A DNA stretch of 64,000 nucleotides from contig MU057989.1 in assembly GCA_013265495.1 (NCBI GenBank), positions 1,443,513-1,507,512 on the forward strand. The letters run 5' to 3'. Positions 25,900 through 63,190 of this stretch are shown here, in pieces. The position numbers and the translations under genes were made by a program. Position 1 is the first letter of the stretch; the number at the start of each line of letters is the position of its first letter. Source of the stretch: Vicugna vicugna. Its lineage: Eukaryota. Under the pieces are notes generated by a model. It was not told the origin of the DNA and ran no database searches. It saw only the letters and a list, made by a program, of their open reading frames with translations.

Positions 25900-26620
25900 T
25901 GGCGGGATTCATGAGCCTCTGTCCGGCACCCTCGGCGGCGAGGGGACTCCATTTCCCGAGGTGCCTAGGACTCGGGGGGCGGAGAGCCGCCGTGGCGTCG
26001 GGCCGGGAGCCGAACCGGGGGTGGGGGCTCGGAGGCCGAGCGCCCGCGGCCGTGGGCGAGCGTCGGCGCTGCCTGGTCCGGGCCATGTCCTGGTGAGGAC
26101 GCCGCCGCCCCCTTTCCTAGCCTTGGCCCGGCTCGCTGCGCACCATGGGCTCCATCCTAAGCCGCCGCATCGCGGGCGTGGAGGATATCGACATCCAGGC
26201 AAACTCGGCCTATCGCTATCCCCCGAAATCTGGTGAGTGGCCGCGCTGGCGCCGGTCCTAGCCTCCGGCGCGGACAGCGAGGCGCGGGCTGGATCGCTGG
26301 GCGGGCGGCGGGGCTGGGGCGCCGGTCTCTAGGCGGAGGGTGGGCTGGGGGCCCTGCTCGGCCCGCAGCCCTTCCTGCAGCTTCCCTACCCGGAGCTCTG
26401 CGCGCCCTCCACCCGGACCCCGGGGCGTGGGTCGGGCAGGGGGCTGACTGCTTTGTCCCGGCTGGGTGACCTTGGGTCAGTCGAGTCGCCCCTGCGTGCC
26501 TCGGCTTCCTTGGCTGCACAATGGGGAAAACTCCATGGGAAACCCCCAGGGCCAGGGTGAGGTTCTGGGGCGCGACGCTGGCGAGGGCATAGCACGGTGC
26601 CTGCGCTTCCCTTGTGCTTA
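25900..26620. promoter_or_regulatory. CpG island / MGRN1 promoter and first exon
   Basis: CpG-dense sequence surrounding the MGRN1 start codon. Confidence 0.85.
26145..26232 (+). CDS. MGRN1: E3 ubiquitin ligase MGRN1 (mahogunin RING finger 1), exon 1
   Basis: gcaccATGG strong Kozak; MGSILSRRIAGVEDIDIQANSAYRYPPKS + G|gtgagt; Gly2 in an MGxxxS myristoylation-type context. Confidence 0.97.
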
Positions 26621-37922: not shown

Positions 37923-40900
37923 TGCGAGCTGCTCCAGTCCCTTGGATGCATGTGTTCTTCCTTTAGAAAAAAACATACCAGAAGGTACAGAGAGTAATAC
38001 AGGGAACGCCCTCCACTCAGCGTCCACGGTTAGCATTTTTCATATTGTGGATGTGGGCACATCCTTCCGCGTTTGTTTCTTCCTTCCCAACATGTGGGTG
38101 TCCCACCGTCTGCGCTGCGGGGCTGCCTTGTGCTAAGTTCTCACGTCCTCCACGTCTGAGTCGTGTTCCTTCTGTGTCTGCTCCGCGCTGATGTGCGGAG
38201 ACCCGGCCCGCTCCTTTAACTGGTGTGTGGTCCCGTCTCGTCACTGCCACGCTCTGTTTGTCCCTTTGTTTATCGAGGAACGTGTGAGGTGTTTCCATCT
38301 TTCTATGCTGGAAAGTCTTGTATTGATCCGCATATTGTGTGTCTGCAACCAAAATATATACATAAATTAAAATTAGAATCTTAAGAGTGAGAATTTTTCT
38401 TCTGGTTTGCATGGCCATTACAAATACCCAGTTGGTCAAAACATAACAAATATTACAGTTTTCATAAGTGACAAACATAAATACTGAAAATCACTGAACA
38501 TACATCTGATGTGAGTGGATGGGCTGCTTTCCCCGCAGTTAATTCATGTAGTCACAGCTGAATAGAGCCTGTTGCTGGAATGAGACAGGTCAGCATCAAT
38601 TCTGGTTCCGTTTTTCATTTTAACTTGAGAAACTTTTTCATATGAATCAAGTAGATGAGAATTAACATGTTTGATTTAGCAATAGCATCCAATTCCAAAT
38701 TATTTGCCAAAAAAAAAATCACATAAAGATCTAATACCAGAAAAATATTATTGATGATTTACCAGCTAACAACTTACGTCTTTCCAGCTCCTAACAGCAG
38801 CTTTATTGAGACATAATTCACATACTGTAAAGTTTATCCTTTTAAAATGTACAGTTCAGTGTTTTTTTTCCAAGAACATATATGTTCCAGTTTTGTGATT
38901 TCACAACCACTGCCCTAACACATTCTTGTCCCATGTGTTCAGTCTTTTAAAAACAATTTTTCTTGTTTTAAAGTAATACACGTTAATTTAGAAAATGTAT
39001 AAAATACAGTTAAAGACAAAACAAACGAGAACATCTCATCCATTGCCTGTTAGTCCAGAGGTTTTAGTTTGTAGCCTTTGTACCTCTGAAGTTATTAACG
39101 CTTCAGACTGCACTGAGACGTGGGGGGCCTCCCGTGTATAGTTCACCGTTAGGTCGTGGAAGAGCTGTGGAGGAGAAGAAAGCAGAGAAGAGGGTCGGGG
39201 TAGGTTGGGGGACGTTGCCAGTTTTAAAAAGAATGATCAGAAAAGGGATTGTTGAGATAGAAACATGAGGTCAAAGGATCCAGGCAGACTCTTGGGGAAG
39301 AACTTCATTAAACAGACGAAACAGCATGTTAAAAGACCCTGGGGGCAAACGGGGTCTGCACTGTCTAGGGCCTTGCAGGCCAGGGAGGAGTTTGGGACTC
39401 ATTCTAGTGTGACTAGGAAGCCACCAGGAAACTATGAGAATGGGATGTGGGAAACAGACTTTGGGGCTATGGTAGTGGGGAGACCCGGGGAGTGGATTGC
39501 AGTAATCCAGGCAGGAGATGGTGGTGGCATTGACCAGGGTGGTGGCCAGGAAAAAGTATTAGAATCAGGAGCCCTCGGAGGGTCACCCAGACTGGATTTC
39601 AAAGCCTGTGGTGATAGTTACCTCTTGGCGAGTAACAAATTCAAAGTGTAGCCATTTATATTTGATGTTCATTATCTCATTGTTTCTGTGGCCCAGGAGC
39701 TTGGGAGTGCCTTAGTTGTGGGACTGCAGTCAGCTGGGGTCTGCTTCCCAGGTGGTTCCCTCATGGGGCCAGCAGGTCAGTGCTGGGTGGTGGCGAGGGG
39801 CCCCCGCTGGTCACTGCATGGACCCCTCCCTAGGGCTGCTTGAGCGTCCTCACCACATGGCAGCTGGCTTCCCCCAGTGCCTTGGAAGTCTCACTGCATC
39901 ATTTCCAGAGTATCCTGCTGGTGACACCGGTTAGTCCTATTCAGTGTGGGAAGTCTGCCGAGAGACACAAGTACCAGAAGGTGAGAATATGGGGGCCTTC
40001 TTGGAGGAGAGCTGCCTCACCTACTTTCTACTGGTGGAGAAAACCCTGGGGATTTGTTGGCCTTAAAGATCCCCCAGGAGGAGGTTAGGTCAGGATTTTC
40101 CGGGTCAAGGGCCTATCTCCACACGGAAGGCCCTGTAGGGTCGGCCAGGCTGCCATTCCTGGAGCTGCCCTCTCCTGAGCCTTCCCTCCAGACCAGGGCC
40201 ACAGCCTTTGGATCCACCTCAGAGTCTTGGAGCAGCGTGGAGGGCCTGTCAGGGCTGAGGACCAGGCCCCACCACGAATGCTCAACAGTTGGGACCTCAC
40301 TGGCCAGTCTGAGCAGCCACTGGGCTTGCACGTACCCTCTCTCACATGCTGCTGTGGTCCGACTTGTCACCCAGTGCCTGGTGCGTGGGGCTTTCCCTAT
40401 CTGCCCTGCTGTATGTGCCGTGGTAACGACCTAGTCAATCTCGGCAGATGAGGTGGCTCTGAGCTGGGTTCCCCTTAAAGCTTCCTGCCGAGGCATCTCT
40501 CACCTACCTGTGATTTGGGCTAGAGGTTGGGTGGACCAAGGGCCAACCAAGACTGCAGCTGGAGTCCAGAGACCACCAGTGCCCCAGGCCTGGTGCCTTG
40601 CTCCCACCCGCCTTCCAGGGCCAGTGTGGGAACGATCATCATATTAAAATGCACTGATGCTTTCAGTGTGGGCAGTGGGACCATGGCAAATCTCAGGTGA
40701 TTTTGGAAGAGTCCCGGAGCGTCCCTGTATCTCAGTCTTTTCATTAAGAGCACCACGATGGTTCCTGTTCAATGAAAAGGTGTAACACGAAGCAGAACGT
40801 CTGGGCTCTGTCCCTGCCGCACCCGCTCCCGCTGGACTTCCTGGCAGCTTTCTGGGCATGTCCTTTTGACCGTTCTGTGCGTGCTCACAACTCGTGTTAT

Positions 40901-55194: not shown

Positions 55195-56351
55195 GTACGC
55201 ACTCGTGGGGCTGCTGGATGCCGGGCTGAGCTCGCTCCCCAGTGCTCCTCCCACCTGTGAGGAAGCGCGCCCGCGGAGTGACCTGCCCAGGGCCCCCTGT
55301 CCTGACCAGGGGCCTGCAGATGAGCAGATGAACTGGTTTCCTGCCATGCCTTCCCCTGGAGGCCTCAGACTCCAGCACTTTCCCTTAAGCGTTAAGAAGT
55401 TAAACCGAGTCTATGGGCCATTTTGTCCTTTTCCCAGCAAATTCACCGGCTTGTTACCCTCACTGGGTTGCCGGCTGTTAGGTGGGTCAGGGCGGCCTAG
55501 GGACGTGGGGCCCTCCTGCCTCAGGCATAGCCGGTGCCGCCTTGGCCTTTCCCTCCCTTTTCCTTCACTGCACCCGCCAGCCGGCTCAACCTCTGACTCC
55601 TGTGACAGGAACCTGGTGGCCTATAGAGCCAGGGAGTCAACCTGTGCCTTTGTCATCATCTTAAGGCACGAGTGAAACTGCTGCCTCTTCTTAAGAATCT
55701 CTGGAGTCTCATGCCAGCTTCCACGACGGCTGGAACTGGCTGGAAGCCGGTGCTCTCTGCCCGGTTCGTGTGTCTGCACCAGAGGTCGGCCGACTTCCTA
55801 GAGGGCCGGGTCTTTGTCATCCTCAGCCTCATGGGCCCTGCAGCGTCTGTCACTCCTGCTCATCCACCCGGCACCATGGGTGTCACAAAGAAGCAGCCAC
55901 AGACATACAGGAACCCGGGGGCAAGGCCGTGTTCCAGCAAAACTTTGTTTCGGAAACAGGTGGCAGGCTGGACTTGTCCAGTTCGTTTTTAGGCTGTTGC
56001 TGTGTCTTGATCTGGAAGCTACTTTTATTTTCCAGAAATTGCTATTATTTAAGGAAAACATTTCAACAACTTACACTTGCCTGATTTTTCTGTTTGTTTG
56101 TTTTGACCAAGCAAACGCGCCTCCTCGGAGGATTTCTGTCCAGTACCGTCCTCCCACATTGCCTCCTTGGTTCAGAGTGACAGGAGACCTGGGTTCTCCC
56201 AGTTTGGGGGCATGTTAGGGGAGGGGCTGCCCTGCTCCTCGGCCACCTTCTCTGCCCCATGGGCCTCCCTGTGCCACCACATCCCCCCCCCATCTGGCCC
56301 CTGCCTCTGGCCTCGGGAGCCACCGACCCTGGGGCTGCGGTGTTCCCACAG

Positions 56352-56511
56352 CCCTCAGACGAGGAGAACGGTGACAACAGCAGTGAGTGTGTGGTGTGCC
56401 TGTCGGACCTGCGGGACACGCTCATCCTGCCCTGCCGCCACCTGTGCCTGTGCAACTCGTGTGCCGACACACTGCGCTACCAGGCCAGCAGCTGCCCCAT
56501 CTGCCGGCTGC
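56352..56511 (+). CDS. MGRN1: MGRN1 exon 10 (C3HC4 RING finger)
   Basis: cacag|CCC...C|gtgagt, 160 nt; CVVCLSDLRDTLILPCRHLCLCNSCADTLRYQASSCPICRL. Confidence 0.97.
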
Positions 56512-57514: not shown

Positions 57515-58850
57515 TAGTTTTATTGAGATATAATTGACTTACAGAACTGTGTAAGTTTAAGATGTACAATGTAATGATTTGATTTACATACATCATGACA
57601 TGATTATCACAGTTTAATAAACATCTATCATCTCATATAGATACAAAATTAAAGAAATAAAAAAACATTTTTTGTGATGAGAACTTTTAGGGTTTACTCC
57701 CTTAGCAGCTTTCATACGTAACATGCAGCAGTGATTATACTTACCGTGTTGTACATTAGATCTCTGGTACTTATTTATCTTATAGCTGGATGTCTGTACC
57801 TTTTGACCATCTTCGTCCAGTTCCCCCTCCCCGCACACCCACCTCTGGTAACCACAGATCTGATCTCTTTCTGTGTGGTTGGCTGGTTGGTTGGTTTTGG
57901 ATTATAACCGACCTACAACACTGTTTAGTTCCTGTTAAACAACATAGTGATTTTTTTTTCTTGTACATTTGGAAACAATCACAATGAAGTCTAGTTACAC
58001 TTTGTCACCATACAAAGATATTATAGTTATGGATATATATTTACATATGACTGTATTTCCCACACTGTGTGGTTCAAACCTGTGACTCATTTATTTTGCA
58101 ACTGGAAGTCTGAACCTCTTCATCTTACTCACCTATGTCTTTCCTCTCCCCACCTCTGTCTCACCTGGTAACCACGTGCTTGTTCTCACTATCTATAACT
58201 GTTTCTGTTTTGTTATGTTTGTTCATTTATTTTGTTTTTTAGATTCCACTTGTAAGTGAAATCACAGAGTATTTGTCATTCTGCATCTGACCTATGTCAT
58301 TTAGCATAATAGCTTCTAGGTCCTTCCATGTTGTTGCAAATGGCAAGATTGTATCTTTTTCTGGCTGAGTAATAGTCTATTACATGTAAATATGCCACAT
58401 CTTCTTTATTCATTCATCTGTTGACAGGCTCTTAGGTTGCTTTCATATCTTGGCAATTGTAAATAGTGCTGCAAAGAACATGGGGGTGCATGTATCTTTT
58501 CTAATTAGTATTTTTGTTTCTTTTGATAAATACCCAGGGGTGGAATTGCTGGGTCATATGGTAGTTCTGTTTTTTAACTTTTTGAGGAACCTCCATCCTG
58601 TTTTCTGTAGTGGCTGCCCCACCAACATGACATGAGGACTCCCTTTTCTCCACTTCCTCCTCAGCACTTGTTACTTGTTATTTTTCTGACAGTAGTCATT
58701 CTGACAGGTGTGAGGTGTGGTTTTGATTTGCATTTCCCTGATGGTTAGTGATGCTGAACATCTTTTCATGTGCAGTATGGAAAAATGTCTATTCAGATCC
58801 TCTGCGCATTTTTTAATCGGGTTGTTTGTTTTGACGTCGAGTTGCCAGTG
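57515..58850 (-). mobile_element. L1 (L1MA-like) 3' region
   Basis: ttttattgagatataattgac..., ccatgttgttgcaaatggcaagatt..., gttttgatttgcatttccctgatg. Confidence 0.8.
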
Positions 58851-59086: not shown

Positions 59087-59196
59087 CTTTCCGGGCCCTT
59101 CTGCAGATCCGAGCGGTTAGGAAGAAGCCTGGAGCCCTGTCCCCCATCTCTTTCAGCCCTGTTCTGGCCCAGAACATGGACCACGACGAGCATTCT
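59087..59196 (+). CDS. MGRN1: MGRN1 exon 11
   Basis: cgcag|CT...TCT|gtaagt, 110 nt; FRALLQIRAVRKKPGALSPISFSPVLAQNMDHDEHS. Confidence 0.96.
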
Positions 59197-61393: not shown

Positions 61394-61459
61394 TGTCCCT
61401 TTAAAAAATCAAAGTCGCACCCTGCCTCACTGGCCAGCAAGAAACCTAAAAGGGAAACA
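61394..61459 (+). CDS. MGRN1: MGRN1 exon 12 (66-nt cassette exon, basic NLS-like peptide)
   Basis: tgacag|TGT...ACA|gtaagt, phase 0-0; CPFKKSKSHPASLASKKPKRET, matching the recalled alternatively spliced MGRN1 exon. Confidence 0.92.
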
Positions 61460-62617
61460 GTAAGTGTGTTCGGCCCCATGGCTCCGTCTTTGCCCCGCAC
61501 CCTCATCACTGCACCAGTGACCAGTACGGGAAGTCACTCTCACCCCCAGCTCACGTGTTTGGTTAATTTAATCTGTCAAATCCACTCTCCCCATTCCCAG
61601 TGTCTCTGCCCAGGAAGGGAGTTTTGTGGAACAAGCAAAGCTCAAGGTCTGTCGGCAAAAAGCCAGTCTCGCAGCCCCGCCGGGCAGCAGCGCCGGCCCC
61701 GGGCGCCCCTGCTCGCCAGCTCTGCTTCTGCCCATGGTCTCCTGAGCACCCTTGTTTCCCTTTTTCTTCTTGCTGGCAGTGGGGTGACGGTGGAGGTGGA
61801 ACTCAGGCCGCCGCTCTTGTGCCCACAGCATCCCCGTGCTTCTTGTCCTGCATCCCTGCTCTGCGGGCTGCACTCTTGGTTCTCTCCCACTTGCCCTCCA
61901 TCCCAGGGAGCATGCTGGGGCCAGGCAGGCCTCTGCCGAGCCCCAAGCCCCCTTGGTAGAACGCAGAGAGTCAGGGTCACCGAGGGTCAGCTGAGAGAGG
62001 GGTCTTCTCCTTGTTTCGAGGGGCGGGAGCAGCTTTAGAGTAATTATGTGCCTTTAAACTGAAGGCACGTTGGGAGTGAATGCAGGGGACCCAGGGGGCG
62101 CTTGCTGGGGGCAGGAAGCTGCCCCCTGCAGCCTCCCTGTTCCCCAGGGCCACTCTGTCACCTCCCCAGAAGGCCAGCTGGGCAGGTAGGAGCCCATGTA
62201 AGAGCTGCCCTTCACTTTGTTAATGAAGAGTGAGGGCAGGTGGCCACCCTGCCCAGCCCCACGGTGCCCGAGGCCTGACTGACGTCCACCTGATGTCTCC
62301 ACTCCCCCTTTGCTTTAACCCTAAAGCAAGGCTCAGCCTATTGACTTGATCCACTCCCAGAGCGGGCAGAACTGGTTCTGAGCAGGATGGCCATTAGATT
62401 CACCCGGAGTACGTGTCAGCCCTGCGGCTGCTTGTCCCAGGCCACGGGGCTCACAGCCTGGCCGGGCCCCTGTGCCAGGCAGGGCTCCGCAGGCAGGTCC
62501 TCTCCGGCCTGGATCACGGCGTTCCTGCTGGTTTCTCCCACCTCTGCCATGGCTTCGCTCCCCTCCTGCTCCTGCTGCTCCTCCCACTAACCCTCTCTCA
62601 CTCTCTGCCCCAACCAG

Positions 62618-62635
62618 GCAGGAGTAGAAAGCCAG
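62618..62635 (+). CDS. MGRN1: Candidate 18-nt in-frame MGRN1 microexon (AGVESQ)
   Basis: CACTAAC branch point 62585-62591, pyrimidine tract with TGC, aaccag|GCAGGAGTAGAAAGCCAG|gtaggg, phase 0-0. Confidence 0.55.
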
Positions 62636-62963
62636 GTAGGGGCTGGGGTGGCTTTCTGAGTGCTCTCTTTCCCTCCGTCCTGGGCACCAACTGGGGCACT
62701 TGGGCGTCCAGGGCTGCATGCTGCAGCTGATGGCCGAGGGAGCCCTGAGCAGGGGTGTCTGATGCTGCTCCGGACTTCTTGGCACCCCTTGAGGGAGGGG
62801 GGTATGAGTCCCTAGAAGGCAGAGTGGACAGGACATGATCAGAGAGTAGTTCTGGGGAGTAGACCCTCCCTGGAACACAAGGCCAGTGTCTGGGGCTTTG
62901 TCGCTGTGGGCAGTGGGCAGGGAGCCTGATCGGCCAGTCCCTCACCTGCGCTTGTCCCTGCAG

Positions 62964-63190
62964 AGCTCTGACAGCATCCCGCCCGGCTACGAGCCCATCT
63001 CCCTGCTCGAGGCGCTCAACGGCCTTCGGGCCGTCTCCCCGGCTATCCCCTCGGCCCCCCTTTATGAAGAGATCACCTACTCGGGCATCTCGGATGGCCT
63101 GTCTCAGGCCAGTTGTCCACTCGCTGGGATCGATCGGATCATGGAAAGCAGCCACCAGAAGGGCAAGCCCCGGAGCAAGTCCCCTGACAG
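62964..63190 (+). CDS. MGRN1: MGRN1 exon 13 (contains the PSAP TSG101-binding motif, 63048-63059)
   Basis: tgcag|AGC...AG|gtgagg, 227 nt; SSDSIPPGYEPISLLEALNGLRAVSPAIPSAPLYEEITYSG... Confidence 0.96.

Follow-up and report, generated by a model that had tools for sequence, protein, structure and literature searches.

A candidate 18-nt microexon with SRRM3/4-type splice signals in intron 12 of MGRN1 in Vicugna vicugna

MGRN1 and the splice signals in intron 12

The window, i.e., the whole stretch of 64,000 nucleotides of Vicugna vicugna DNA analysed here, is filled by MGRN1 from about position 26145 to its end. The translations of exons 11, 12 and 14 were identical to camel and alpaca proteins (100%), and that of exon 13 matched them at 97-99%. 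Exon 12 is the known cassette exon of the gene; presumably the human 66-nt event HsaEX0039140 corresponds to it, the two having been equated by length alone. A tblastn match at 55821-56510, considered as a retrocopy, was rejected as it represents exon 10 in over-extended form.

Intron 12 comprises 1504 nt. The candidate exon is located 1158 nt past exon 12 and 328 nt ahead of exon 13 (Table 1). A preliminary description of this region had proposed that its inclusion preserves the reading frame and places the insert 28 residues ahead of the PSAP motif. Both statements were confirmed: exons 11 and 12 end and exon 13 starts in phase 0, the insert contains no stop codon, and 28 residues encoded by exon 13 precede PSAP.

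Table 1. Features of the MGRN1 3' region bearing on the candidate microexon (positions in the window).
Feature	Position	Strand	Remarks or basis
MGRN1 exon 11	59087..59196	+	ends in phase 0; 100% to camel and alpaca peptides
MGRN1 exon 12, known 66-nt cassette exon (CPFKKSKSHPASLASKKPKRET)	61394..61459	+	phase 0; match to camel/alpaca peptides
AG-free, pyrimidine-rich zone of 119 nt 5' of the candidate acceptor	62497..62615	+	AG-gap count
Consensus branch point CACTAAC	62585..62591	+	27 nt from branch A to the last base of the AG
C-rich stretch including CUCUCU repeats and the TGC (62606-62608), plus acceptor CAG	62592..62617	+	direct sequence check
Candidate 18-nt microexon, would encode AGVESQ	62618..62635	+	direct sequence check
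Donor CAG/GTAGGG, followed by two G-runs	62636..62649	+	approximate weight matrix
TGCATG, RBFOX-type motif, not conserved	62715..62720	+	sequence and ortholog ORFs
MGRN1 exon 13, PSAP motif at 63048-63059	62964..63190	+	starts in phase 0

All motifs that had been named previously (CACTAAC, TGC, acceptor, 18-nt exon, donor and TGCATG) are present in the sequence as listed in Table 1, with acceptor, exon and donor in the order CCAACCAG/GCAGGAGTAGAAAGCCAG/GTAGGG. No other AG is present between the branch point and the one ending at 62617. Three further features, not mentioned in the preliminary description, are CUCUCU repeats starting at 62593 and 62601, the G-runs behind the donor and the long AG-free zone in front of the acceptor. 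AG gaps of this length occur twice among 2647 in the MGRN1 gene span; the AG-free stretches at the genuine acceptors of exons 12 and 13 measure 28 nt and 24 nt, respectively. When scored with an approximate weight matrix, the candidate donor ranked first among the 210 GT sites of introns 11 and 12, above the genuine donor of exon 12.

These signals are shared with SRRM3/SRRM4-dependent neural microexons (10.1101/2024.09.17.613571; PMC12871342; PMC7935315), which are 3-27 nt long, keep the frame and feature a UGC, a CU-rich tract, a strong donor and a long AG-free zone. Between branch point and AG, 57/73 and 51/71 SRRM3/4 microexons are reported to have a UGC, and their response tracks donor strength (10.1101/2024.09.17.613571). 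The candidate has 18 nt, phase-0 flanks and an open frame, a TGC between branch point and 3' AG and, within the limits of the approximate matrix, a strong 5' splice site. Unlike in that class, its branch point is close to the AG and the region between them is not extended: the distance is 27 nt vs a median of 45 nt in neural microexons, in which the branch point lies in an unpaired region as a tendency rather than a rule (PMC12871342). Predicted pairing in the branch-point-to-AG region of the candidate was 0.54, and that of the TGC was 1.0. A special RNA structure at this site was rejected, the fold around the candidate being no better than that of shuffled sequences (z 1.15).

Chance expectation and conservation in other mammals

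The 37.8-kb gene span was scanned for sites combining a branch point, an AG-free pyrimidine tract, an in-frame exon of 3-27 nt and a good donor. The antisense strand and 60 local Markov shuffles served as null; the latter do not mimic pyrimidine tracts, and the filters were set post hoc with the candidate site already known. With these qualifications, the candidate was the sole match on the sense strand with strict and medium branch-point filters (antisense strand, 0; shuffles, 0-0.12 expected), and the loosest filter returned three sense matches, none on the antisense strand and 0.68 expected. Individual motifs are cheap: the chance of a TGC in a comparable interval is 27%, and that of a TGCATG within 150 nt is 6%. 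Scaled up to a genome, the null expectation of about 0.07 sites per 38 kb would correspond to look-alikes on the order of thousands.

Two other sites deserve mention. In intron 10 (58108-58257), a second microexon look-alike of 9 nt is present at 58243 (TAG/ATTCCACTT/GTAAGT); it is in frame, lacks a TGC and is preceded by the longest AG-free zone of the gene, exceeding the 119 nt of the candidate. Its T-rich surroundings resemble what we take to be an antisense LINE-1 end. In intron 1, a weak 21-nt in-frame match of the loosest scan (39909-39929) sits inside the alternative first exon of Bactrian camel models (tblastn 39818-39982).

Orthologous sequences were obtained with phmmer, using an open antisense reading frame in intron 12 as the query, such that the DNA of other species is deduced via protein only. 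The search yielded two spurious antisense ORFs, P0235 and P0236, the latter with nine cluster members. P0235 is whale-like, as judged by compatible runs of 75-90 nt with sense-strand read-through ORFs of whales, and the P0236 cluster is probably bat-like (71-nt compatible run for P0239). Two other intron frames used as protein queries gave no match across the exon among 15 candidates, and one match to exon 13 only. Two loci from a metagenome scan (55% identity) were rejected as not orthologous.

Both P0235 and P0236 span the candidate exon without indel, and in both the antisense reading of the branch point is G-L-V. In P0235, both donor bases (GT) and the A of the AG are fixed; in P0236, this holds for the G of either dinucleotide. 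The remaining AG/GT bases are located at wobble positions and are compatible but hidden. Of the TGC, the first two bases are fixed in P0235, and P0236 does not retain the motif at its position. The preliminary description had named lack of conservation of AG, GT and the 18-nt spacing as evidence against the exon. Since the spacing is kept in two lineages, conservation does not speak against it in this way, with the AG and GT bases being partly hidden. At the valine codon of the exon, P0235 has Ala and P0236 likely Ile. Both visible changes are non-synonymous, and selection on the peptide is therefore unsupported.

Between branch point and donor, 32/39 codons are identical vs 172/289 in the flanks (Fisher p 0.008, a post hoc value from comparisons that are not independent). 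The top 60-nt window starts at 62586 with a score of 0.81, and a flank window at 62721 scores 0.79; of the 36-nt flank windows, 17/371 reach the core mean. Visible changes in the core numbered three vs about ten expected in P0236 (Poisson p 0.01) and four vs about eight in P0235 (Poisson p 0.09), values that are optimistic because frameshift steps absorb mismatches. The flanks of neural microexons are described as highly conserved (PMC12871342), whereas those of the candidate are moderately conserved, and indels of about 10 and 17 nt directly follow the donor in two orthologs. A separate block downstream (62700-62790) is conserved about as well as the candidate in P0235 and P0236 and may be a regulatory element or a product of chance.

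TGCATG was changed in all three other lineages in which it can be read, i.e., P0235, P0236 and the dog-like P0002; the rodent-like P0102 was left out of this count as it starts inside the motif. At this position, P0002 has Cys-Val instead of the Cys-Met of the window. The motif may have arisen in the lineage of the window, possibly by CpG decay of TGCGTG. The proposed promotion of inclusion by RBFOX thus finds no support, and the candidate lacks the conserved downstream UGCAUG that characterizes the RBFOX-activated class.

Annotated proteins and published catalogues

A set of 233 proteins (the best 120 of 422 matches plus 113 cluster members) was inspected for the six-residue insert. It was present in none of the 217 MGRN1 proteins with anchors in both exon 11 and exon 13, which comprise 20 named camelid isoforms, mouse and rat, and whale, bat and rodent models; the sole human entry of the set is without anchors. 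Gene models easily miss microexons, and for this reason missing annotation is taken as moderate evidence.

Three sequences considered as possible counterparts of the exon were discarded. MVRKQ, with which P0074 starts, derives from a donor inside the intron near 62850; the insert in rabbit P0114 scored 21.5 vs 20.1 for shuffles (maximum 25.5); and SRGMD, a five-residue insert in P0094, whose model contains further odd inserts, was dismissed by inspection, unaligned. P0074 itself is a bat-like spliced ORF in which the intronic donor is joined to exon 13. Its cluster mates P0263-P0266 read through the intron, and at about 62835-62850 the window contains no GT at the position of this donor. In seven dog models (P0028, P0032, P0034, P0038, P0040, P0052 and P0062), 25 additional residues are found between exons 11 and 12, which are absent from the other species of the set.

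Mouse Mgrn1 presumably maps to 4.89-4.94 Mb of chromosome 16. None of the five plus-strand rows with a chr16 coordinate starting with 4 in the mouse MicroExonator table (PMC7821500, file 2) lies at that position. MGRN1 is absent from the available supplement tables of PMC4317164, in which APBB1 and ERGIC3 are present, and from the human SRRM4 inclusion table of PMC7935315, which lists ERGIC3 (12 of 19 files of that source). Elsewhere in the same files, six MGRN1 rows refer to exons of 45 nt (HsaEX0039136) and 66 nt (HsaEX0039140). A full-text literature search for an MGRN1 microexon matched PMC11283458 only, and the event may be listed in VastDB or other supplements. The Mgrn1 exon used in that study is described as longer than 27 nt and Srrm4-independent. 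A four-isoform scheme for MGRN1 is given in PMC9331370. For human and rodents, the negatives refer to tables and proteins.

The preliminary description had also suggested that the exon is relevant to the neurodegeneration of Mgrn1-deficient mice. Given that the mouse tables and proteins examined are without the exon, this link is unsupported.

Interpretation

Part of the original proposal is supported: positions 62618-62635 form a potentially splice-competent, in-frame 18-nt cassette of SRRM3/4-type anatomy that exceeds local chance expectation and whose signals are compatible in two further lineages; its RBFOX element is not supported. We tentatively favour, at somewhat less than even confidence, the view that in camel-, whale- and bat-like mammals this segment serves as a cassette microexon that is skipped most of the time. 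Its inclusion, probably at a low level and perhaps in SRRM3/4-rich cells, would extend the tail of MGRN1 by six residues. Being too short for ordinary exon definition and having a C-rich acceptor, the exon would be skipped in most cells, and PTBP1 could bind the CU repeats and add repression. At high levels of SRRM3/4, the UGC in the branch-point-to-AG interval would promote commitment of U2, with the strong donor completing exon recognition; RBFOX would be dispensable. With the insert, the linker that separates the basic stretch of exon 12 from the PSAP motif would become longer, and both of these elements would stay unchanged.

Among known systems, the SRRM3/4-dependent class resembles the candidate as described above. 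The differences are its close branch point, its less conserved flanks and its absence from the human and mouse lists searched, the candidate being predicted from genomic sequence. The 'cryptic' microexons of VastDB, whose PSI is less than 10 in more than 90% of samples and which occur with or without UGC and UCUC (10.1101/2024.09.17.613571), are similar in having correct-looking motifs and little or no annotated inclusion; in contrast to the candidate, which was recognized in genomic DNA, their PSI has been measured. The known alternative exons of MGRN1 (66-nt HsaEX0039140 and 45-nt HsaEX0039136) belong to the same gene and affect the same C-terminal tail, the 66-nt exon being 1.16 kb upstream. 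They are nevertheless other exons of other lengths, and the known neural one is the exon described as Srrm4-independent (PMC11283458). EJC-repressed cryptic microexons (PMC6224609) also arise from a donor close behind an acceptor, which gives a tiny exon. Those, however, are found in the initial 15 nt of an annotated exon of greater length, whereas the candidate donor is at +18 and there is no annotated host exon.

A competing reading, which we consider possible though the less probable one, is that of a pseudo-exon, i.e., a sequence that resembles an exon, is located in an intron of high GC content and slow divergence, and is never spliced above noise. The lack of the insert in 217 annotated proteins, the absence of the exon from the mouse and human tables searched and the nearly equal conservation of the downstream block (0.79 vs 0.81) are all in line with it. 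So are the 9-nt site at 58243, as another textbook look-alike in MGRN1 with a longer AG-free zone, and the expected abundance of such sites genome-wide. However, branch point, acceptor and the best local donor coincide at the candidate and are compatible in two other lineages, and the core has changed less than expected, even if the corresponding values are optimistic.

We regard it as unlikely that the segment is a genuine neural microexon which annotation has missed and which camel-, whale- and bat-like mammals have retained, while it is silent or absent in mouse and human, and that it provides these lineages with an additional neuronal form of a ubiquitin ligase linked to neurodegeneration. 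The proposal in its full form, a pan-mammalian, neuron-specific microexon driven by SRRM4 and RBFOX with relevance to mouse Mgrn1 neurodegeneration, appears very unlikely. The anatomy fits, and Mgrn1 splicing is CNS-regulated according to PMC2394768. Against this, the neural Mgrn1 exon in use is the longer, Srrm4-independent one (PMC11283458), no row is found at the presumed Mgrn1 position in the mouse table, MGRN1 is missing from the SRRM4 inclusion table that lists ERGIC3 (PMC7935315, files available), and TGCATG is lost in 3/3 other lineages. A decay-inducing exon spliced from the real acceptor region, either as a 14-nt form (AG ending at 62621) that reads E-stop at once or as a 184-nt form (donor after 62801) that is out of frame, would escape protein annotation and has a parallel in the cryptic splicing of intron 12 in bat-like P0074, but is highly improbable as the branch point is followed by the AG ending at 62617 before any other AG, the donor at +18 scores 9.0 vs 5.2 for that at +184, and P0235 is without the TAG of the 14-nt form.

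Turning again to the mostly skipped cassette microexon, its consequences for the protein are likely to be small, because the insert consists of six residues, varies between lineages and falls into a tail described as disordered. A review places the PSAP motif in this disordered tail (PMC13161197); the AlphaFold model of alignment A1, with a mean pLDDT of 29, was of too low quality to be used. The mechanism class is already well known, and the candidate alone opens no long-standing question. Loss of MGRN1 causes spongiform degeneration in mice (PMC13161197). If real, the candidate would add one unannotated microexon to a gene linked to this disorder, and it would represent a microexon gained or lost between mammalian lineages that human- and mouse-centred catalogues would miss.
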